Source: a virus. From it: a stretch of 35,332 nt of DNA. This document shows, in pieces, positions 9,279-32,282 of the stretch; the stretch's first letter is position 1, and each line of letters starts with the position of its first letter. The DNA lies in IMG/VR virus record IMGVR_UViG_3300045988_168292, positions 1 through 35,332 of that record; one strand, written 5' to 3'. The notes below the pieces were generated by a model that was given only the letters and a program-made list of their open reading frames with translations, was not told the origin of the DNA and ran no database searches. Both the position numbers and the translations under genes were made by a program.

Positions 9279-9437
9279 CTACTTCACTAACTCTGTATGT
9301 GCGTGTTCCTCGCTCTTTTCTTTTTGTATTCGTATTCTATTTTTGCATCTTGTGCATTTAATTTCTCCATCAATGTATTTTATAAAAATCAGAGTTTGTC
9401 CACATTGAGGACATTTTACTTTTTCTATCTTATTCAT
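9279..9437 (-). CDS. Com-family-like zinc-ribbon protein (52 aa from the ATG at 9437; track ORF extends to 9473)
   Basis: Sequence is MNKIEKVKCPQCGQTLIFIKYIDGEIKCTRCKNRIRIQ, with CxxC..CxRCK spacing like Mu Com. AAGGAG lies upstream of 9437. Its ATG overlaps the GT stop (GATGAATAA). Confidence 0.55.
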   Translation of the reverse strand: MNKIEKVKCPQCGQTLIFIKYIDGEIKCTRCKNRIRIQKEKSEEHAHTELVK

Positions 9438-10007
9438 CACTAAACATTTCTCCTTGATGATTAATCTTTTCATCTAATTCTGCATATGTTATTTTATTTA
9501 ATTTAAAATCATAATTAATTTTATAATGTTTATATAGTTTTAGAAATTTGGATAAAGTCATTCTGCCTACTTCTTTTTCTCTAAATCCTAATAAACAATG
9601 TCCAACAAATAATATCCACGAGAAATCAATAATAAATTCTTCATCCTCGTGGATTACACGTTTTTTTCTTCTTCTTCATTTTTTGTTGATTCTATTACTG
9701 TTTCTTGTACTTTATCTGTTAAATTCTTCATTCCTAATTCTGTTATCAATCTTCCTACTTGTTTTGAAGTTACAAATTCTCTTTTAACCTCATTATTTTC
9801 GTTTTCAATATCTATTCCTTCATTAATCATTTCTAAAATTCCGAATTTTAATGCTCCTATATTTATTTCTCGTTCTTTTCCATCTGTCATTTCTCCCCAT
9901 TTCTCATAAGAACCATATTTATCTTGTATTTTTTCTATTACATTTAGATTAAATACTAAAGGATATTTTATGTTTTTGCATTCAATATATTTAATAGTAT
10001 CAATCAT
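9430..10007 (-). CDS. Tail assembly chaperone GT fusion made by -1 programmed frameshift
   Basis: After the slippery A-AAA-AAC, the -1 frame stays open for 76 codons (RVIHEDEEFIIDFSW...TLSKFLKLYKHYKINYDF...MFSDE*), ending at 9430. Confidence 0.7.
9654..10007 (-). CDS. Tail assembly chaperone G
   Basis: 117 aa acidic protein between the major tail and tape measure genes. It ends in a GAA-AAA-AAC slippery run. Confidence 0.8.
   Translation of the reverse strand: MIDTIKYIECKNIKYPLVFNLNVIEKIQDKYGSYEKWGEMTDGKEREINIGALKFGILEMINEGIDIENENNEVKREFVTSKQVGRLITELGMKNLTDKVQETVIESTKNEEEEKNV
9660..9668 (-). promoter_or_regulatory. -1 ribosomal frameshift slippery site (G AAA AAA C; heptamer A-AAA-AAC)
   Basis: Seven consecutive A on the coding strand lie 2 codons before the G stop. 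The downstream -1 frame is open. Confidence 0.7.
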
Positions 10008-10026
10008 CTTTTACCTCCTAAAAATT

Positions 10027-10074
10027 AAAAGTAGACTAGATTGAACGTTTTGTGGTTCAGTATAGTCTACTTTT
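10027..10074 (-). terminator. Leaky intrinsic terminator/stabiliser hairpin after the major tail gene
   Basis: 12-bp stem (aaaagtagacta / tagtctactttt), followed on the minus strand by a T-run and then the chaperone RBS. Confidence 0.6.
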
Positions 10075-10082
10075 TATTTAAA

Positions 10083-10667
10083 TTATTTAGATGGTGTTAA
10101 AAGACCATCTAAATATGCTTGTGCTTCAGCTAATGTTTCAAAAGTTTCAGATTTCTTCCAATCTCCAACTTTCATTCCATTTATTTCTTCTTCTAACTCT
10201 AATACAGTTGCTTCAATAGAAACTGTATTATATTCTATTGATTCACCTTTTGTTTTTCTATCAGCAGTAATTTTTGTTATTTGTATACGTGGTAAAAACT
10301 CTACTTTATAGCTTTTTACACTTTTATATATTTTGGTAACAATATGTCCATAGCCGATTTCTGGTGCTATATCTTCTGAATTGTCTGTAACTTCTTTTTC
10401 AGTTATTGTACAACCTTTTACATCAGCATATACTTCATCTGTAACATCATCAACAGTTATGTTTACAGTTCCACCTTTGAAAGAATAATCTTTTTCTGCA
10501 ATTATATCGTCTGCTCTTAATGTTGTATTGTTTTTATCTTCTGTTATTTTTGCATCAATTAATCTTCCTAAAACTGGTACTATTGATTCTTTTACTAACG
10601 CTGCATATTTTTTTGTAGTATAATCTATTTTATTATATTTTGCTGTTCTTAGTCCTATACTAGCCAT
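10083..10667 (-). CDS. Major tail protein
   Basis: 194 aa in the position after the neck genes. Has an LRADDIIAEKDYSFKGGTVNITVDD pattern typical of phi13-type major tail proteins. A hairpin follows it. Confidence 0.75.
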   Translation of the reverse strand: MASIGLRTAKYNKIDYTTKKYAALVKESIVPVLGRLIDAKITEDKNNTTLRADDIIAEKDYSFKGGTVNITVDDVTDEVYADVKGCTITEKEVTDNSEDIAPEIGYGHIVTKIYKSVKSYKVEFLPRIQITKITADRKTKGESIEYNTVSIEATVLELEEEINGMKVGDWKKSETFETLAEAQAYLDGLLTPSK

Positions 10668-10989
10668 TTATATACCTACCTTTCTTAAAAGAACATGTTC
10701 TATGATATAAGCCTGTTTCTTCTTCAAAAAATTCTTGACTATCTCCATCCCATGTCCAGTCATTTTCTTTCATTTTATTTTTTATTGAACTCATTATTTT
10801 TAAATAATTGCTATCACTATAAATATCTATATCAACAGTTACTTCGCTGTCTGTTATTTCATCATCACTTGAAGAAAGTGGTTCTTCATCTATTATTGTC
10901 CATACAACATAAGTTTTTTTATTCCCTTTATACTTTAAATGTGCTACTGGAACATCTAATTTTAAAATCTTTTTTATTTCACTTTCCAT
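10660..10989 (-). CDS. Tail terminator / tail-completion protein
   Basis: 109 aa directly upstream of the major tail gene, which it overlaps. Confidence 0.55.
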   Translation of the reverse strand: MESEIKKILKLDVPVAHLKYKGNKKTYVVWTIIDEEPLSSSDDEITDSEVTVDIDIYSDSNYLKIMSSIKNKMKENDWTWDGDSQEFFEEETGLYHRTCSFKKGRYING

Positions 10990-10991
10990 AA

Positions 10992-11405
10992 TTACTCCTT
11001 TGACAAATATTTTTCTTGAACTTTTTTCATTTCTGACTCTATTTCTGCTTTTCTAAAAGATTTACGCATAAACGTTTGTTTTTTTACTGTTGATGTGCCA
11101 TGTTCAAAAATATTTGCAACAAGCGGTGCTGGTGTTATTACTCCTCTTTTATTCTTGAAATATCCGTAAAAGCCAACTTTAGTGTTTATTCCTTTATCGC
11201 TTGGCGTTTTATATACTTTAGTTATTTTCAAACATTTCATTATATTTGAGGCTCTAAAAGATTTTGGAACATTTTTCAGTACATTTTTATATACTTTTTC
11301 TGCTCCCGCTTTTGTCATCTCACCAATTATTTTTTCACTATCTTGTTCTAATTCTTGAAACACTTTTATTAAATCATTTGGTAATTCTTCTTTAAATTTC
11401 GCCAT
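10992..11405 (-). CDS. HK97 gp10-like neck/tail-component protein
   Basis: 137 aa. The N-terminus (KFKEELPNDLIKVFQELEQDSEKIIGEMTKAGAEKV) resembles the HK97 gp10 family. Confidence 0.6.
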   Translation of the reverse strand: MAKFKEELPNDLIKVFQELEQDSEKIIGEMTKAGAEKVYKNVLKNVPKSFRASNIMKCLKITKVYKTPSDKGINTKVGFYGYFKNKRGVITPAPLVANIFEHGTSTVKKQTFMRKSFRKAEIESEMKKVQEKYLSKE

Positions 11406-11749
11406 TATTTAGTCACTCTTTTACATTGCATTTCAAGTTCAATATTTGCCTCATTTACATTATTTAAATATTCAATAGTATAGATTTTGTCTTTATATTT
11501 TACATATACATCTCTATTAGAACTGTAGTATGCGTCTTCTACTTTTTTTGAATATCTAATAGTAAAATTAGTATACGCCTTTTCAAAATCAGAACCATTT
11601 GCAATTAAAGTATATCCTTTTGTTGTTTTTACTTTAGAAAAAGGTTTAAGGATAATAATTTCATTTTTTGTAACAAATCCATCACTATCCTCTATTTCCT
11701 CAATTTGATATATAGATATTTTTTTATTATAATCGCCTGCGTTTATCAT
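11405..11749 (-). CDS. Head closure / head-tail adaptor protein
   Basis: 114 aa, with overlapping start and stop to its neighbours in the connector block. Confidence 0.6.
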   Translation of the reverse strand: MINAGDYNKKISIYQIEEIEDSDGFVTKNEIIILKPFSKVKTTKGYTLIANGSDFEKAYTNFTIRYSKKVEDAYYSSNRDVYVKYKDKIYTIEYLNNVNEANIELEMQCKRVTK

Positions 11750-15335: not shown

Positions 15336-17015
15336 CTAAAAACTTTGACATACAAAATTATCTTCATTTAATATCTTTTGTTGCAATAAATAAGTCGCTA
15401 TAATTGTACTTACAACCATATCGACTTTCCCAGTAGATTTTTTCTTATTAACATATTTATTTAAATTAGTATCTTCTGTACATTTTGCATTTTGGAAATT
15501 TATTTCATATAATCTGTCACCGTCGTAGCTAAATTTTCTTTGTAATATATTTTCTTGCAAGAATTTTGTTGGTTGATGTAAAACACTTGAGTGTTGTTTT
15601 ACTTCAACTGTCTCATATCCTGCTTCTTGAAGTTTATTAGCTGTAGAAATGCAGTTATATCTATCATAGCCTATTTGAACAATATGAACTCCATATTCTT
15701 TTTCTAAGTTCATAATAAATTTCTCAACAAAACTATATGATATAATTTCCTCTCCGCAAGCAAAACAACTTCCATCTTCTATAAATCTTCTATAGTCAGT
15801 TCTTTCTCTACGGTTCTTTTCTTCTATTCTTCCTGCAGGAATAAAAGCCCATGATTTTGCAAATATCATATCATCTTCTATTGTTACCATTGAAACTGAT
15901 GTATTATCATTTGTCATTGCTAAGTCTAATCCTACATATACATCTTTTCCGTCCCAATTAAATACTCCTCTTGTGTTTTTACATAATCTTAATTTATCTA
16001 AAGTTATAAATTCTTCACCAGAATTTGATGGCATGAAATAATTCATGTGTTTTGTTAAAAACTCAACTCTTTCATCTGGCTTTGCTAATGCTTTTTTTCT
16101 GTTATCTCGGATTTCGTTATAATTTTCTTCAACTCTTAACGGATTTGCCATCTGTAATCCAATATCATCCCACAAATGCTCTTCTGTTGCATAATATACT
16201 AGTGCAAATAATCTTTCATCTGTTTCAAGGCCTTTGTATATCTTTTTTAAGTAGTCAAGTTCTCCTAACATTATTGATTTATCTTCTGCATATGCAGATG
16301 TTAATCTAAACATCAAGGGATTTCTTATATTTAATTGACCAGATTTCATTGCTTCAACATTCGAATTATCTTTCATTGCTCCAAATTCATCTGCAATAAA
16401 TGCACTTGGTTTTATCGAATTGTTTCTATTTGCTTCTGCCGTTCTTGGTTGATAAAAACTATGTGTCAATGTGCATTCTAATCTTCCACTTAATGTTTTT
16501 GGAATATTAAAGTATTGACCAACTAATGGACTTACATTTAAAATTTGTGCTATTGCTTTTTTTACTTCTCCTGCTAAGTCTCTGTCTAAACATATTGAAT
16601 AAAATTCTGAATAATTATCTTCAGTCAGCATTAATATTATAAATATTAGTGCTGCTAAAAATGTTTTTGTATTTTTTCTAGGTATAAATAAATCAACTTC
16701 TCTATACCTATACTTTTTAGCATCTGTTTTGTATCTCCATCCAAAAATATTAGCAATAAAAAAAGCTTGGAAATTTTCCAAACCTTCGTATAAACTTTTG
16801 CCAACAATATGTAATCCAGTTGCAAAATTCAATAATTTTAAAATGCCCTCAATTATTCCAATTTTTTTTGTATCAAAATAATATGGATAATAGTCATTGT
16901 TTTGTTTTTCTAAATCTTCTAAAAACCATTCGCATTGTTTTTTTACTTCAAATGTTGTTATTTCTTTTCCACTTATACAATCTTGAGCATATTCTTTTGC
17001 TTTTTCTAATAACAT
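15336..17015 (-). CDS. terL: Terminase large subunit
   Basis: 559 aa with a Walker-A-like IPRKNTKT motif and a C-terminal nuclease region. ATGA overlap with terS. Confidence 0.9.
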   Translation of the reverse strand: MLLEKAKEYAQDCISGKEITTFEVKKQCEWFLEDLEKQNNDYYPYYFDTKKIGIIEGILKLLNFATGLHIVGKSLYEGLENFQAFFIANIFGWRYKTDAKKYRYREVDLFIPRKNTKTFLAALIFIILMLTEDNYSEFYSICLDRDLAGEVKKAIAQILNVSPLVGQYFNIPKTLSGRLECTLTHSFYQPRTAEANRNNSIKPSAFIADEFGAMKDNSNVEAMKSGQLNIRNPLMFRLTSAYAEDKSIMLGELDYLKKIYKGLETDERLFALVYYATEEHLWDDIGLQMANPLRVEENYNEIRDNRKKALAKPDERVEFLTKHMNYFMPSNSGEEFITLDKLRLCKNTRGVFNWDGKDVYVGLDLAMTNDNTSVSMVTIEDDMIFAKSWAFIPAGRIEEKNRRERTDYRRFIEDGSCFACGEEIISYSFVEKFIMNLEKEYGVHIVQIGYDRYNCISTANKLQEAGYETVEVKQHSSVLHQPTKFLQENILQRKFSYDGDRLYEINFQNAKCTEDTNLNKYVNKKKSTGKVDMVVSTIIATYLLQQKILNEDNFVCQSF

Positions 17016-17608
17016 TATGCTTCACCTCGTAATACTTTTAAAAGTGGATTATCTGCTTCTTTATCCTCTTTTTTAGGTATACTTCTTAATGCCGATGCTA
17101 TTGTCATGACATTTTCTTTTTCAATGTCTAATAACATTTTTCTTTTTACTTGTACTTGTTTGTCTATTGACAACATAGACTTTATCATTTTTGCAAGAGT
17201 TTTAGCATATTCTAATTTGTAATCTAATAATCCTTCTGTGTCGTCTCTCTCTTTTAATTCCTCTATTAGTTCATTTTCTTCTTCTCTTAATTTAGATATT
17301 AAATTGTAGCATTCTTCTCTTCGTTCTTCTAAATCTGAACACTCAGCTTGGAGCAAACAATATCTATTTATAACTGCTTCATAAATTGCATCATTTTTAT
17401 CTATATTTTTTAGTATTTTTTGTATTCTTTTAAATTCTTTATGTGCTACTTTGTTTTGTTTTACTTCTTTTCTTTCTTTTAGTTCCATATCTGTGCTTAA
17501 AGATTTCTCTCCTTCTTCTCTCATCTTTAATTCAGCTTTTGTTCTATGTGACTTTTTTTCTGTCGTTAATACCTTGTATGGTTTTGTTGGTGTTGGCATA
17601 TTGTTCAT
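17015..17608 (-). CDS. terS: Terminase small subunit (P27-like)
   Basis: 197 aa. N-terminus is PTPTKPYKVLTTEKKSHRTKAELKMRE, followed by a coiled coil. Directly upstream of terL. Confidence 0.75.
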   Translation of the reverse strand: MNNMPTPTKPYKVLTTEKKSHRTKAELKMREEGEKSLSTDMELKERKEVKQNKVAHKEFKRIQKILKNIDKNDAIYEAVINRYCLLQAECSDLEERREECYNLISKLREEENELIEELKERDDTEGLLDYKLEYAKTLAKMIKSMLSIDKQVQVKRKMLLDIEKENVMTIASALRSIPKKEDKEADNPLLKVLRGEA

Positions 17609-17718: not shown

Positions 17719-18105
17719 TTAGATATTCTTTTTTTCTTGCTCATCTATTATTTTTTGTACTATTTCTCGTGGTATCTCTCTGTTCTCGCACATCTCATGA
17801 TGATAACTGCATACTGTTATTAGGTTGTCATTATCTAATCTTCTATTATAGTCTTCGTTTATTGGTATGTTGTGATGTACACTTAGTTCATTCATGTTAT
17901 ACTTTGTTACTGTATTGTATAATTCTCTAATGCATATCTGACATAAATACAAGTCTCTCTTCTTTATTTCTTCTCTCTTTCTATGCCATAAACTTGTCCA
18001 CCTAAACCTATCCGCTTCTGTTACTTCTTTCTTTCTGTTTGGCTTTTCTTTACATATATATTTACTATCATGTATCTTCCCACAATATTGACAACTCTTT
18101 AACAT
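17719..18105 (-). CDS. HNH endonuclease (terminase-associated)
   Basis: Motifs are CQYCGK...CQIC...SVHHNIPI..DNDNLITVCSYHHEMC. Located upstream of terS, as in HK97-like cos phages. Confidence 0.85.
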   Translation of the reverse strand: MLKSCQYCGKIHDSKYICKEKPNRKKEVTEADRFRWTSLWHRKREEIKKRDLYLCQICIRELYNTVTKYNMNELSVHHNIPINEDYNRRLDNDNLITVCSYHHEMCENREIPREIVQKIIDEQEKKNI

Positions 18106-19131: not shown

Positions 19132-19566
19132 TTATATGTGCTTTTCAGTAACTTTTTGTTCCTTATTACATAATTTATCAAATTTATTTAATGCTATTCC
19201 ATTCATCTTTCTCATATATTCATAATTATAACCTATCTCACTAGCTGTTTTTACTAATGATTTACCTTTAATATACACACTGTCTAATATTAATTTATAT
19301 GGTTGTCCAAGTTTATCTAATTGTTCTAATATCATCTTTTGTTTTTTGCTTTCTTCTACGACTTTTTCTAATAATTCATTTATTGTATCAATTAATATAC
19401 TTAATTTTTCTGCCATATTATCTTGCACTTGTTTACTGCCATTTGGCATATCTGACAATGCTGCTGTTATGTTTGTTATATTTGTTTTATACTCTTCTAT
19501 GTATTCTAATCTACCTTTTATCCATTGTTGATTATGTTTATATTCTTTTAGATTTTCTCTATTCAT
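19132..19566 (-). CDS. Late-gene transcriptional activator (sigma-70 region-4-like; ArpU/RinA/DUF1492 type)
   Basis: 144 aa, the last early gene before a 280-bp gap and the packaging genes. It has a C-terminal HTH-like region (SLVKTASEIGYNYEYMRKMNGIAL) and an N-terminal LKEYKHNQQWIKGRLEYI. Confidence 0.6.
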   Translation of the reverse strand: MNRENLKEYKHNQQWIKGRLEYIEEYKTNITNITAALSDMPNGSKQVQDNMAEKLSILIDTINELLEKVVEESKKQKMILEQLDKLGQPYKLILDSVYIKGKSLVKTASEIGYNYEYMRKMNGIALNKFDKLCNKEQKVTEKHI

Positions 19567-19714
19567 TTGTTCTCCTTTCCCAACTTTTACAAGTATCTCT
19601 TTTTAATACACAATCTTTATTATGCTTTTTTGAATTATCTGAAATACATAATCCTGTTCCGTATTTTCCTTGTCCAATTCTAAAATATTTACAAGTTTCA
19701 CATATCTTTGTCAT
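19559..19714 (-). CDS. Small Cys-rich protein (51 aa, below track cutoff)
   Basis: Sequence is MTKICETCKYFRIGQGKYGTGLCISDNSKKHNKDCVLKRDTCKSW. RBS is ACGGAGTG. It overlaps the next start. Confidence 0.5.
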   Translation of the reverse strand: MTKICETCKYFRIGQGKYGTGLCISDNSKKHNKDCVLKRDTCKSWERRTNE

Positions 19715-19733
19715 TTGTATCACTCCGTTTCCT

Positions 19734-20606
19734 TTACTTATTTTCTACATACTCTTTGATATTGGGAACAGTTTGTTTTTTTATTATTCTTACTATATCT
19801 TTTAATATTTGTTCTTTTTCCTCTTCTAAAATATCATTAGCAATTATATCTAATTTCTTAAATATTTCCCTATAATCTTCTGACTTTGGGTTTTCTATTC
19901 CTATTTGTGTCAAAAACTTACATATTCTCATAGGTGTAATATATTTATCTAAAAATGCATATGGACTTTTTGTTTCCGAATTCTTTATATGTTTTACTTC
20001 TTGAAATTTGTCTCCAACTATTTTTATTCTTTTTTCTCCATCTAATGTTTTTACTACTATTCCTTCTCTTATGCAATCAGTACCTTCCAATTCAGATTTT
20101 TGATTGTCCACATATTTTTTCTTTAATTCATCATAACTCGTTAAATTTTCAATTGCTATTTCTGGTACTGTTTTAAAACCTATTTTACTTGCTATCTCTT
20201 TCATTTCTTCTATGCTTGCAAATATTCTTGTAAAATCCTCATCTTCTGTTGGTCTTTTTATTATTTCTTTTACTAAATCAAAAGCATAGTATGGCTCTAT
20301 CTTTCCTTGTTTGGCTAATGAATTATAGTTTATTTTGCCTTGATTTAACCATTCACCATATAATACATACCCTTTTGGTAAATATTCTAATATTTTGTTT
20401 TCTCTTTTTCTTACATATTCAACAAATCCATTTAGCCCATCTTCTCCCGTTAATTCATTTGTCCTGCTATATAATCTTATTTTTCCATTATCATTATATA
20501 TTGCTGTGTTACTTCCATCTATCTTTTCTTGGACTACTATTCTTGTTCCTTCTTCTATTTGATATTTAGCATTGTCTGGTCTTTTTATTTTACAATACAT
20601 TTTCAT
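19734..20606 (-). CDS. ATP-dependent RNA ligase (Rnl2-like nucleotidyltransferase)
   Basis: Motif I EKIDGSN, Ia YSRTNE, III VLYGEWL, IIIa YYAFDL, IV EGIVVK, V RIKIVGDKF. All are in the canonical order and spacing. Confidence 0.75.
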   Translation of the reverse strand: MKMYCKIKRPDNAKYQIEEGTRIVVQEKIDGSNTAIYNDNGKIRLYSRTNELTGEDGLNGFVEYVRKRENKILEYLPKGYVLYGEWLNQGKINYNSLAKQGKIEPYYAFDLVKEIIKRPTEDEDFTRIFASIEEMKEIASKIGFKTVPEIAIENLTSYDELKKKYVDNQKSELEGTDCIREGIVVKTLDGEKRIKIVGDKFQEVKHIKNSETKSPYAFLDKYITPMRICKFLTQIGIENPKSEDYREIFKKLDIIANDILEEEKEQILKDIVRIIKKQTVPNIKEYVENK

Positions 20607-20607
20607 C

Positions 20608-20910
20608 TTATCTTTCCTCCTTTATAGGTTCAAATGTAAATCCTTTTTTATTAAAATCAGTTAATTTTGTTTCCCAACTTTCAATAGGTTTCTTTACTTT
20701 TAAACTTTCTTTAAAACTGTTTTTATGCTTTTCTTCATATTTTGCTATTAGTTCTTCTATGTAATCTGCTTCTATTAGCATCCTGTTATTTCCATATGTA
20801 CCTTCTAAGCCTTCTACTAACTCTTTTATATCTGCTAATCTTATATATACTTCTGTTCTACCATTTCTAGTTTGATGTTCAATTTCTTTTTTTAATCTTT
20901 CAATATTCAT
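20608..20910 (-). CDS. Hypothetical early protein
   Basis: 100 aa, tightly packed in the minus-strand operon. Confidence 0.6.
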   Translation of the reverse strand: MNIERLKKEIEHQTRNGRTEVYIRLADIKELVEGLEGTYGNNRMLIEADYIEELIAKYEEKHKNSFKESLKVKKPIESWETKLTDFNKKGFTFEPIKEER

Positions 20911-30256: not shown

Positions 30257-30295
30257 TACTTTTTTTAAAATTTTTTGATTTTCTTTTGTAATTGT

Positions 30296-30324
30296 TTGCA
30301 AAACTGACAGTACAATGCTATAAT
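30296..30324 (+). promoter_or_regulatory. Repressor promoter TTGCAA-17-TATAAT with palindrome ACTGACAGT in the spacer
   Basis: ttgcaa at 30296-30301, tataat at 30319-30324, actgacagt at 30303-30311. Confidence 0.7.
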
Positions 30325-30345
30325 TTACTTGAAAGGAGTGCTTTT

Positions 30346-30699
30346 ATGAGTTTCGGAAATAATTTAAAAAAAATTAGGCAAGATAACCAAATAACACAAG
30401 AAGAACTTGCTAAAAAGATTAATACATCTCGTTCTAATATTGCTAATTATGAAAATGATAAGAATATGCCATCTATCGAAATTTTAAATAAATTATCTGA
30501 AATCTTTAATTGTTCTACTGATTATTTATTAGGTAAAACCGACGTTAGAAACCCAGGTCAAAAAATAGACGATGTGTTAAATGAAGCAATGATAGGTATG
30601 TCAAAAAAAGATTATGACGGATTAACAGATACTCAAAAAAAACAAATTAGAGATTTTGCCATATTTGTAAAAGAACAAAAATCAAAAGGAGAAAATTAA
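30346..30699 (+). CDS. CI/ImmR-like XRE-family repressor (start at 30346; track ORF starts at 30292)
   Basis: NQITQEELAKKINTSRSNIANYENDKNMPSIEILNKLSEIFNCSTDYLLGKTD. RBS is GAAAGGAGTG. TAATG overlap with the immA-like gene. Confidence 0.85.
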   Translation: MSFGNNLKKIRQDNQITQEELAKKINTSRSNIANYENDKNMPSIEILNKLSEIFNCSTDYLLGKTDVRNPGQKIDDVLNEAMIGMSKKDYDGLTDTQKKQIRDFAIFVKEQKSKGEN

Positions 30700-31052
30700 T
30701 GAATTTAGATTCTTTATATGATATTGCCAATAAAGAAAAAATTAAAATCTACGATTGGTATATAGAAGATTGTCATGGTATTTATTTGAATTATGATAAA
30801 ATAAATGCTATCGCACTTAATTATGATAAGTTAGGAACCTATATCGAAGAAAAATGCACTTTGGCAGAAGAATTAGGCCACTTTTATATGGATGCTACTT
30901 ACCCCGCTTCTTGTACTGATAAAGCTCTCATCGACAAACAAGAATATCGTGCAAAGAAATGGTCTTATTATGTGCTTATTCCATTCGAGAATTTACACAG
31001 AGCAATTTTAAGTCGGAATCAATACAATTTATGCTTTAGCAGATTATTTTGA
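30699..31052 (+). CDS. ImmA/IrrE-family (M78) metallopeptidase-like protein, apparently frameshifted near 31011-31016
   Basis: Its position directly after the XRE repressor and before int matches the immR-immA-int order. The motif is AEELGHFYMD where HEXXH is expected. The ORF ends in out-of-family sequence. Confidence 0.6.
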   Translation: MNLDSLYDIANKEKIKIYDWYIEDCHGIYLNYDKINAIALNYDKLGTYIEEKCTLAEELGHFYMDATYPASCTDKALIDKQEYRAKKWSYYVLIPFENLHRAILSRNQYNLCFSRLF

Positions 31053-31119
31053 GGTTACAGTTGAATATATGCAAAATGCAATTAATTTTTATAAAGATAA
31101 ATATGGTTTTATATACTAA
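31012..31119 (+). pseudogene. Out-of-frame C-terminal remainder of the immA-like gene
   Basis: The +1 frame reads GINTIYALADYFEVTVEYMQNAINFYKDKYGFIY*, a typical ImmA-like C-terminal helix pair. Confidence 0.55.
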
Positions 31120-31120
31120 G

Positions 31121-31151
31121 GATAAGTTGAAATACACTTATCTTATTTTTT
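31121..31151 (+). terminator. Hairpin plus T-run between immA-like gene and int
   Basis: Stem is gataagt / acttatc, followed by ttatttttt. Confidence 0.5.
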
Positions 31152-31163
31152 AAGGAGGAAATT

Positions 31164-32282
31164 ATGCCTAAATATAAAGATATGAATTATACCGTTAGAA
31201 AAGATGGAAGATTAATGAAAAAAGTAACAATAAATAGTAAGCCTATATACATCTATTCTAATGAACCATCTGATTTATACAATCAGTATATCGATTTGAA
31301 ATATAAAGGTAATAATGGAATACTAATTGATAACAATAATATTACTTTTAAGCAATATGCAGAAAAATGGTTTGAAATAAATTGTTCTCTTAGAGAAATT
31401 GCTACACAAGATTCCATTAAAAATAGAATTAATCATTTGAATGAGTATATAGGAAATATAAAATTAAAAAACTTGAAAAATCATCATATTAAAGAAATTG
31501 TTACTGATTTATCTAAAAAAGGATACACGGATTTAACTAAACGTTCTTTAGCAGAATGTAAAAGAATTTTAAATGATGCAGTTATAAATGATGTCATATC
31601 TAAAAATGTTGCTTTAGGAATAAATTCTCCAAAATTTCCTAAAACAGAAAGAAAGCCTCTAACTCAATCTGAGGACTTAAAAGTTTTTAATTTAGCCTTA
31701 ACTCATAAATATGGTTTGTTTATTTTATTACTTAGATATTGTGGCTTGAGACCAGAAGAAGCTGTAGCTTTAACTATAAGAGATATTGATTTAAGTAATA
31801 AACGTTTAAATATTAACAAAGCTGTATCTCTTGCAAGAAATCAACCTGTAAAAAAGCCTACTAAAAATTTAAAGAACAGAAAAGTTCCTATTCCAGATTT
31901 TTTAATACAGTTATTATCTGAACGATTAGCTTATTGTTCTGAGAATAAAATTGAATATGTTTTTACTAAAGAAACTAATAAGTATGCTATGTTGACAAAA
32001 CAAGCTTTAAAAACTCATTTAGATTCTTTTCTAACTGCTCTAAATAAAAATATAGAAAATGAAGATGATAAAATAAAATTTTCTTATTATCAATTAAGAC
32101 ATTCTTATTGTACAATGTTATACTATGCAGGAGTTAAAATAAAAAAAGCCCAAGAATTAATGGGGCATTCTTCTGCAGATATGGTTTATGATGTATATAC
32201 TCATCTGGATGAAGAAAGAGAAAATGCAGATAAATTAATAAATGATTACATCTCCAAAAGTATAGCAAAAAGTTGTCAATAA
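31164..32282 (+). CDS. int: Tyrosine recombinase / phage integrase
   Basis: 372 aa with an N-terminal SAM-like domain. Catalytic region is GLRPEEAVAL...YQLRHSYCTMLYYAG...MGHSSADMVYDVYTHL (R..HxxR..Y). AAGGAGG RBS. Confidence 0.9.
   Translation: MPKYKDMNYTVRKDGRLMKKVTINSKPIYIYSNEPSDLYNQYIDLKYKGNNGILIDNNNITFKQYAEKWFEINCSLREIATQDSIKNRINHLNEYIGNIKLKNLKNHHIKEIVTDLSKKGYTDLTKRSLAECKRILNDAVINDVISKNVALGINSPKFPKTERKPLTQSEDLKVFNLALTHKYGLFILLLRYCGLRPEEAVALTIRDIDLSNKRLNINKAVSLARNQPVKKPTKNLKNRKVPIPDFLIQLLSERLAYCSENKIEYVFTKETNKYAMLTKQALKTHLDSFLTALNKNIENEDDKIKFSYYQLRHSYCTMLYYAGVKIKKAQELMGHSSADMVYDVYTHLDEERENADKLINDYISKSIAKSCQ

Follow-up and report, generated by a model that had tools for sequence, protein, structure and literature searches.

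The window analyzed here is the whole 35,332-nucleotide sequence of the IMG/VR virus record IMGVR_UViG_3300045988_168292, and the gene under study is an open reading frame (ORF) within it that was predicted, from the sequence alone, to encode an Rnl2-type RNA ligase (Table 1). The gene lies on the minus strand, which the original prediction had not stated, and its product carries all six of the nucleotidyltransferase motifs quoted there (EKIDGSN, SRTNE, YGEW, YYAFDL, EGIVVK, and KIVGDKF), in that order. The stop codon of the gene upstream (20608-20610) is separated from the ligase ATG by 1 nt, which implies cotranscription and tight coupling of the two genes. A promoter scan around the ligase gene found 32 candidates compared with 37 expected from shuffled sequences, and no promoter is claimed. 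Minus-strand terminator-like hairpins were confined to two sites, one (19053-19027) following the late-regulator gene and the other at 18322-18293. Because these lie only beyond the late-regulator gene, we infer that the early transcription unit has the ligase as its last enzyme gene or the last but one. No family match was obtained for the three ORFs that immediately precede the ligase, and none of them has a counterpart in any related locus.

The protein matched the Pfam RNA_ligase family PF09414 (E 6.4e-24; 85.4 bits against a cutoff of 27; profile positions 2-171 of 171) and, over its full length, PHROG 548, "RNA ligase" (E 5e-34). A profile built from 60 family sequences aligned residues 1-286 with residues 2-326 of T4 Rnl2 (PDB 2HVQ; E 2.8e-24). 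The same profile matched Naegleria Rnl5 (E 2e-20) and Rnl3 (E 5e-14) in the adenylyltransferase domain only, and DNA ligases were found at E ≥ 0.01. The family profile was needed for this comparison: when the protein itself was compared with PDB sequences by phmmer, only spurious matches to designed helices came back, and none of the NCBIfam and PADLOC models matched the ligase. The AlphaFold2 (AF2) model (predicted local distance difference test [pLDDT] score, 86.8) has a beta-rich N-terminal domain and an all-helical C-terminal domain (residues 217-288). In Foldseek searches with this model, T4 Rnl2 was the top match (E 8e-10; 315 aligned columns), followed by Rnl5 (TM-score of about 0.52) and REL1; Rnl1 was weak (E about 1e-5), and DNA ligases appeared at E ≥ 7e-5.

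Several other assignments were tried and rejected. An ATP-dependent DNA ligase was rejected because the match to PF01068 (DNA_ligase_A_M) scored 17.2 bits, below its cutoff of 26.2, and covered just 35 residues around motif I, and because the AF2 model has a helical C terminus and no C-terminal OB fold. The Pfam, family-profile, and Foldseek results likewise ruled out a capping enzyme and membership in Rnl1 or Rnl3. Membership in Rnl5 was rejected because the profile aligns only with residues 160-338 of Naegleria NgrRnl, only about 20 residues precede motif I in the window protein, and a C-terminal helical domain of 86 aa is present. The PF09414 match lies far beyond chance, and the ligase identity is confirmed by these comparisons. 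The original prediction of an Rnl2-type RNA ligase without an OB-fold C terminus, rather than a DNA ligase or capping enzyme, was thus borne out by Pfam, profile, and Foldseek results and by the shuffle control described below; the check that it had proposed, a profile comparison with PF09414 and Rnl2 structures, returned RNA ligase and T4 Rnl2 as the best matches.

Residues of the catalytic motifs (K28 in motif I, R48 in Ia, E85 in III, F109 and D110 in IIIa, E181 and K186 in IV, and K195 in V) are invariant or nearly so in alignments of 60 and 62 homologs, and K28 is the predicted AMP-accepting lysine of motif I. The essential residues of T4 Rnl2, as defined by the mutagenesis work of the Shuman laboratory, were mapped onto the alignment. 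Equivalents of E34, K35, G38, N40, R55, E99, F119, D120, E204, K209, and K225 are kept in the catalytic domain, and R227, D258, and E262 of the C-terminal domain align with T4 R266, D292, and E296. The asparagine that had been noted after the DG of motif I is N33; its conservation in the family is 98%, and it corresponds to T4 N40. All of the mapped essential catalytic residues are invariant save two, H37 and K227. The motif I histidine of Rnl2 and REL (KxHGxN) is missing, with D30 (100% Asp) in place of T4 H37, and the second motif V lysine (T4 K227) is missing, with V197 in its place (Val in 97% of the family); HMMER gave the same register. Because both family-wide departures are Rnl5-like, the window ligase family is best described as a distinct Rnl2-like subfamily and not as a T4 Rnl2 ortholog.

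To assess the C-terminal domain, we used an anchored control in which the T4 Rnl2 catalytic domain was kept, the C-terminal domain alone was shuffled 1,000 times, and each product was scored with the family profile. Real T4 Rnl2 scored 88.3 bits and the catalytic domain alone 66.6 bits, while the shuffled proteins scored 66.9 ± 1.3 bits (maximum, 77.4). The T4 C-terminal domain therefore adds about 22 bits, and none of the 1,000 shuffles reached the real score (z = 16). An hhalign comparison gave a P value of 0.0045, with TxxRV and DILEE aligned in register. A hidden Markov model of the C-terminal domain alone scored the T4 C-terminal domain no better than shuffles. Foldseek with the isolated domain model (pLDDT, 88.7) found nothing significant in PDB or BFVD, a comparison of low power, since annotated viral RNA ligases there also reached only E values of about 2 to 8. 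The anchored control was decisive, and by it the sequence similarity of the C-terminal domain to that of T4 Rnl2 is significant.

A search of about 5.8 billion proteins returned 447 homologs, the best 120 of which are 80-99% identical to the window protein, and 409 clusters at E ≤ 1e-3, most of them of 280-330 aa, were obtained when 1.84 billion cluster representatives were searched exhaustively. To place the gene in context, all window proteins were compared with 32 related loci, each reaching at most 10 kb to either side of the ligase. In 29 Clostridia phage or prophage loci, the ligase protein is 76-91% identical, and nearly all other window genes are absent or less than 50% identical. Nucleotide identity to the window is about 0.88 inside the ligase gene and about 0.35-0.48 in the flanks, with the shift falling at the ligase ATG on one side and within roughly 25 nt past the stop codon on the other. 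Three unrelated families of small downstream ORFs, spread over the 32 loci (L001-L032), share an apparent "MIQM" N terminus (MIQMT/K), which is read-through from an upstream GTG of the shared ribosome-binding region (GGAG, 8 nt, ATG) before the true ATG. At this ribosome-binding region the ligase cassette reaches its 3′ recombination boundary. The ligase keeps a constant position at the end of the early region: a small ORF comes next, and beyond it lies an ArpU- or sigma-like late regulator. The upstream neighbors of the ligase differ between loci. Among 28 sequences, the median ratio of nonsynonymous to synonymous substitution rates (dN/dS) was 0.12 at a dS of 0.65 and was equally low in both domains (0.107 in the C-terminal domain). 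Conservation at this level of divergence reflects long-term purifying selection and not only recent transfer. These results indicate that the ligase is a sharply bounded cassette that has been exchanged between gut Clostridia phages whose other genes are mostly unrelated.

An exact 77-bp terminal direct repeat (1-77 and 35256-35332) shows the window to be a complete genome, circularly closed and about 35,255 bp long; its G+C content is about 26%. A 455-aa lysin-like ORF spans the contig junction; it has an SH3_3 domain, and its enzymatic domain was not recognized. The genome layout in Table 1 was obtained from PHROGs and Pfam scans. The integrase, cI/Cro-like pair, ImmA-like protein, tape measure protein, and major tail protein, together with the lack of a sheath, agree with the original description of a temperate siphovirus. 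The placement of the HNH endonuclease gene beside the small terminase gene is an arrangement typical of HNH-assisted cos-type packaging. A megablast search with 23 kb of the window found no match among isolated phages. Close homologs of the ligase occur on IMG/VR viral contigs of 20-41 kb and in metagenome-assembled genomes that bear the name uncultured Clostridium sp. or Clostridia bacterium. Some of those in the assembled genomes lie in integrated prophages, on contigs 98-173 kb long.

Table 1. Features of the ligase gene, of the window, and of loci carrying distant ligase relatives (positions in the L-numbered loci are those of the respective locus; −, minus strand; +, plus strand)
Feature	Position	Strand	Basis or content
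Rnl2-type ATP-dependent RNA ligase gene (putative)	19734-20606	−	ORF with ATG start, 290 aa plus stop; PF09414, PHROG 548, T4 Rnl2 profile match, dN/dS
Nucleotidyltransferase (adenylyltransferase) domain, residues 1-203	19998-20606	−	Invariant alignment columns, T4 Rnl2 mapping, AF2 pLDDT mostly >85, Foldseek
Flexible interdomain linker, residues 204-213	19968-19997	−	Sole AF2 segment with pLDDT <50; disordered
All-helical C-terminal domain, residues 214-290	19737-19967	−	AF2 models, residue map, anchored shuffle control, dN/dS
GGAGG ribosome-binding site of ligase	20616-20620	−	Shine-Dalgarno sequence 8 nt before ATG; within 3′ end of upstream gene
Conserved 3′ flank of ligase cassette	19712-19733	−	GGAG (19726-19723) and ATG (19714-19712) of next gene; conserved block stops here
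Upstream ORF, 237 aa	21324-22037		Cys-rich, zinc-ribbon-like C-terminal segment (phrog_10312)
Upstream ORF, 136 aa	20913-21323		Coiled-coil-like product
Upstream ORF, 100 aa	20608-20910		Coiled-coil-like product
Cys-rich ORF, 51-54 aa			Next after ligase
ArpU/RinA-type late activator	19132-19566		After Cys-rich ORF
TM2-domain membrane protein, 78 aa	18336-18572		PF05154, E 1.5e-9; between late regulator and HNH/terminase genes
HNH endonuclease	17719-18105		Immediately upstream of small terminase gene
Small terminase subunit	17015-17608		Large terminase subunit also present
Early leftward operon			Sak-like annealase, RecE/YqaJ-like exonuclease, NinB, RusA
Structural genes			Portal, ClpP-type protease, major capsid protein, connectors, major tail protein, tape measure protein, tail fibers
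Lysis genes			Holin, lysin-like ORF
Lysogeny module	30292-32282	+	Cro-like and cI-like pair, ImmA-like metalloprotease, tyrosine integrase
76-aa ORF and PIN_3 protein	33489-34180	−	Moron position between lysis genes and integrase; PIN gene at 33489-33947
L043			Ligase-RlaP-CCA-adding enzyme
L045			Thg1 two genes upstream of ligase
L048	5001-8795		Ligase, Thg1-like enzyme, 177-aa unknown, RlaP, metallophosphoesterase; cluster of 503 sequences; 35-kb contig
L049			Ligase-PTH2
L051			RtcB 2 kb downstream of ligase; Pol III alpha and RecD2-like helicase upstream
L033, L042 (Bacillus velezensis and B. licheniformis prophage-like elements)	7764-11630, 3170-7616		PolA-ligase-DnaQ/RNase T-like exonuclease
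L035 (large-phage contig)	10001-13139		Rnl2-like gene and ATP-dependent DNA ligase (A_M + OB_2) about 1 kb apart, dUTPase gene between

Because the genome is complete, the absence of an RNA end-healing enzyme can be tested directly. No polynucleotide kinase, HAD, 2H, HD, or metallophosphoesterase protein was found by PHROGs in any ORF, including the one that spans the junction, and none of these families was found by Pfam in any nonstructural ORF, with the ORFs nearest the ligase scanned singly. ("Serglycin" matches in the Pfam scans were an artifact of the GS linkers joining concatenated ORFs.) A motif scan of the listed ORFs found a P-loop in the large terminase alone and no DxDxT, paired HxT/S, or calcineurin-type signatures. 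About 30 small ORFs carry no annotation, and a novel healing enzyme among them could have gone unrecognized in these scans. A T4-type RNA repair system of ligase plus Pnkp was accordingly rejected, and the claim that the ligase has no recognizable Pnkp or other end-healing partner holds for the complete genome by PHROGs, Pfam, and motif scans. The rarity of such an orphan ligase was overstated in the original prediction, since more than 300 isolated phages carry a homolog annotated "RNA ligase" and the lack of Pnkp is the norm for the subfamily.

Relatives in isolated phages are distant: 334 records contain a homolog, all less than 33% identical, and nearly all are Herelleviridae-type phages of 113-165 kb. 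Most of these homologs are annotated "RNA ligase," and "DNA ligase" or hypothetical protein is used at times. GenBank records disagree even on one and the same Kayvirus ORF, which goes by "RNA ligase," "DNA ligase," "putative DNA ligase," "Lig," or "hypothetical protein"; the profile evidence favors RNA ligase. We sampled 11 distant ligase contexts, counting one locus (L051) in both the RNA-repair and the DNA-replication groups. RNA- or tRNA-repair neighbors were present in 5 of the 11 (L043, L045, L048, L049, and L051). In L048, the ligase heads an apparently complete RNA-repair operon, with a helix-turn-helix regulator upstream and a resolvase nearby. Four further contexts (L034, L035, L044, and L050) have nucleotide-metabolism or other neighbors. 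Since L035 has both a DNA ligase and an Rnl2-like gene, the ligase family is not simply the phage DNA ligase. The remaining group, with DNA-replication neighbors, comprises L033, L042, and L051. In the two Bacillus elements, L033 and L042, the ligase gene is set between the genes for the family-A DNA polymerase and the exonuclease, stop and start codons overlap, and RuvC is nearby, which suggests a replication-linked role in that clade. The AimR arbitrium receptor was also seen in L033.

Taken together, the conserved residues and domains suggest that the product of the window gene is an active RNA ligase of the T4 Rnl2 type, one that seals nicks without a partner enzyme. In the mechanism that we propose from these residues and from T4 Rnl2 biochemistry, K28 would react with ATP to form ligase-AMP, the helical C-terminal domain would help to engage a nick in duplex or structured RNA as the AMP is passed to the 5′-phosphate, and attack of the 3′-OH on the adenylylated end would reseal the strand. 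Its substrate, the timing of its action, and any role in counter-defense we infer from the following considerations. A phage without a kinase or phosphatase could use the ligase only on ends that are already ligatable. Breaks with 3′-OH and 5′-phosphate ends could arise during infection from metal-dependent nucleases of defense systems or competitors, of which the PARIS/OLD Toprim tRNases are an example. In PARIS, the Toprim tRNase AriB introduces a nick into the anticodon stem; the 3′-OH was shown by polyadenylation, and the 5′-phosphate is expected from two-metal chemistry (PMC12409363). Nicks of this class are the substrate that we favor. No healing is needed for such ends, and this would account for the spread of the ligase by itself, as a portable single-gene cassette, among mosaic gut Clostridia phages. 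Direct resealing of 3′-OH/5′-phosphate nicks in tRNA or other structured RNA, as RNA repair or counter-defense, is the reading that we put forward, with the balance of belief poised about evenly for and against it. The more specific proposal that the stand-alone ligase is a portable single-gene anti-defense cassette that reseals stem-nicked tRNA, cut by Toprim PARIS/OLD or HNH/RuvC-type tRNases, is more tentative, and we would sooner doubt than assert it. The original suggestion that the ligase counters an RNA-nicking defense leaving ligatable ends gains from the distant relatives that reside in tRNA- or RNA-repair cassettes built on nucleotide-adding enzymes and loses its proposed PIN-type source, as discussed below.

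Several points weigh against resealing of RNA as the function. In the window, neither RlaP, Thg1, a CCA-adding enzyme, nor a metallophosphoesterase was found by PHROGs or Pfam, and a tRNA scan found no tRNA genes. No nucleotide-adding repair enzyme was recognized in the flanking clusters of the 29 close relatives, most of which were not scanned against family libraries. In the absence of the K227 and H37 equivalents, the kinetics or substrate of the family could differ from those of T4 Rnl2, and the biological role of T4 Rnl2 itself is unknown (PMC3884662). The searched literature contained no report of a counter-defense role for an Rnl2-type phage ligase; papers on OLD, Schlafen, and Cas12a3 mention "RNA ligase" in methods or references only. 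The phage host is uncultured, and 3 of the 11 distant contexts have DNA-replication neighbors.

These replication contexts bear on the main rival explanation, in which the ligase would act on DNA by sealing phage DNA nicks that have ribonucleotides at the 3′-OH end ("ribo-nicks"), left at junctions that are RNA primed or patched with ribonucleoside monophosphates in recombination-dependent replication or repair. Besides the polymerase-exonuclease arrangement of the Bacillus prophages and the Pol III alpha and RecD2-like helicase genes upstream of the ligase in L051, the ligase lies near RNase H in phage G1 and beside Gam, Sak4, helicase, single-stranded DNA-binding protein, and primase genes in Listeria phage LP-101, and the window ligase closes an early region with Sak, a RecE-like exonuclease, NinB, and RusA. 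The KxDG motif I and single-lysine motif V of the window family also resemble those of Rnl5. Sealing of ribo-nicks has been proposed for Deinococcus Rnl5, and a DraRnl knockout is radiation sensitive; the authors call the question open for Rnl2 (PMC5397189). Within the window, however, no polymerase or primase that could make ribo-nicks was recognized by PHROGs or Pfam, more than 3 kb of unrelated ORFs separates the ligase from the recombination genes, and the upstream neighbors vary by locus. The distant contexts favor RNA repair over replication by five to three. Ordinary DNA nicks, moreover, would already be served by the host NAD-dependent ligase. On balance we consider a DNA-side role unlikely, though it is the strongest of the alternatives.

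Another explanation offered by the original prediction is that the ligase buffers the phage's own PIN toxin. The PIN gene is real: its product matches PF13470 (E 2e-12) and scores above the cutoff of TIGR00305, and it is accompanied by the 76-aa upstream ORF. It also weakly matches the PADLOC candidate system PDC-M11A (E 4e-5). PIN relatives (55-80% identity) were found on 6 IMG/VR contigs (L036-L041) and on none of the 19 ligase-bearing contigs, nine of which are near full length. In the 32 ligase loci the PIN gene is unmatched, although the loci extend at most 10 kb to either side and the PIN gene is about 13 kb from the ligase in the window. The two genes also reside in different modules, a moron/lysogeny region and the early lytic region, and a toxin of the toxin-antitoxin type normally has its own antitoxin. 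The premise that PIN nucleases generally leave ligatable ends fared no better. Mycobacterium tuberculosis VapC (PIN) toxins are reported to leave 5′-OH ends (PMC6459853), which a kinase-less Rnl2 could not seal, and Toprim tRNases are the better-documented source of 3′-OH/5′-phosphate ends (PMC12409363). With no co-occurrence of PIN and ligase genes, buffering of the PIN toxin is largely refuted, and we regard it as very improbable.

A third alternative is that the ligase has a nonrepair RNA role, such as joining or circularizing a regulatory RNA or processing transcripts, or that it is a passenger gene without an important role. An RNA ligase does act in processing or circularization in the case of Rnl3 with protein-only RNase P (PMC12153264). 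The absence of tRNA genes from the window (a result of the tRNA scan, which did not cover other structured RNAs) speaks against a nonrepair role, as do the unconserved flanks, which mean that no fixed cis-acting RNA partner travels with the ligase. A passenger gene would not be expected to show strong purifying selection and spread across unrelated phages. Both forms of this explanation are therefore improbable, although less so than buffering of the PIN toxin.

The interest of this ligase comes from its behavior as a cassette, the strong selection on it, and its testable link to tRNases that produce 3′-OH/5′-phosphate ends. T4 Rnl2 has served laboratories as a standard reagent for two decades, and it is still an open question whether nick-sealing RNA ligases act in the repair of RNA, of DNA, or of both (PMC5397189). 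The window provides a stripped-down natural case: its complete 35-kb genome encodes no repair-type enzyme besides the ligase, and the ligase gene is under strong purifying selection and forms a discrete cassette, a pattern expected of a gene that is useful by itself. The kinase-less tRNA-repair cassettes of its relatives, together with the 3′-OH/5′-phosphate nicks made by Toprim nucleases, turn this into a concrete and testable hypothesis. If the anti-defense proposal is true, it would give the first biological role for Rnl2-class phage ligases and a "ligase-only" mode of RNA repair distinct from that of T4 Rnl1-Pnkp; if the enzyme proves ordinary, the gene is merely a well-annotated accessory gene.

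Among known systems, T4 Rnl2 (gp24.1; PDB 2HVQ, 2HVR, and 1S68) is the best profile and fold match; in both proteins, an N-terminal adenylyltransferase domain is followed by a C-terminal domain that is helical and about 85 aa long. Its gene, like the window ligase gene, presumably does not lie beside pnk. The two proteins are only about 20% identical, the window protein is about 40 aa shorter, and its motif I is KxDG, in contrast with KxHG in T4. The phages differ as well: T4 is virulent, a large myovirus with genes for Rnl1 and Pnkp as well, while the window phage is a 35-kb temperate Clostridia siphovirus. Rnl5 (Naegleria NgrRnl, 5COT; Deinococcus DraRnl) resembles the window ligase in its KxDG motif I, single-lysine motif V, and adenylyltransferase domain, and the same nick-sealing chemistry is expected; the domain layout of Rnl5, however, is the reverse of that of the window protein, with an OB-like domain at the N terminus and nothing equivalent to the C-terminal domain.

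Precedents for the family in phages exist. The "RNA ligase" proteins of Herelleviridae (Staphylococcus phage K/G1 ORF032, Listeria A511/P100-like phages, and Bacillus SPO1-like phages; PHROG 548) are 24-32% identical to the window protein over the full length and have the same length and motif variants, and no Pnkp was seen in the single neighborhood looked at, that of Staphylococcus phage G1. They differ in belonging to virulent phages of 113-165 kb, in which the ligase lies among nucleotide-metabolism genes; no biochemical characterization of these ligases was found in the searched literature. The 43.8-kb siphovirus Listeria phage LP-101 (LP101_058) is closer in kind, a small phage whose early region encodes a PF09414 ligase (E 5e-25) on its own, with no recognizable polynucleotide kinase in the regions examined. 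A protein annotated "kinase" in LP-101 was considered as Pnk and rejected, as it is a DUF3310 protein. Its ligase is 24% identical to that of the window and lies upstream of the Gam-to-primase genes named above, not directly before a late regulator. The ligase family is thus already annotated, in Staphylococcus phage K-like phages and LP-101 among others, and unaccompanied copies are common.

A functional parallel is T4 Rnl1 with Pnkp, which acts against PrrC; both would be cases of a phage ligase undoing RNA damage inflicted by a host defense, a role that is proposed for the window ligase. The T4 pair heals 2′,3′-cyclic phosphate/5′-OH ends, and its ligase is specific for single-stranded anticodon loops, whereas the window phage has no healing enzyme. 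In jumbo phages, healing enzymes generally go with such ligases, according to a comparative review (PMC7824862). The RlaP/Thg1/CCA-adding cassettes of the Burroughs and Aravind type (PMC7824862 and PMC12776372) include distant members of the window family as their ligase component (L043, L045, and L048), while the window phage and its 29 close relatives carry the ligase alone.

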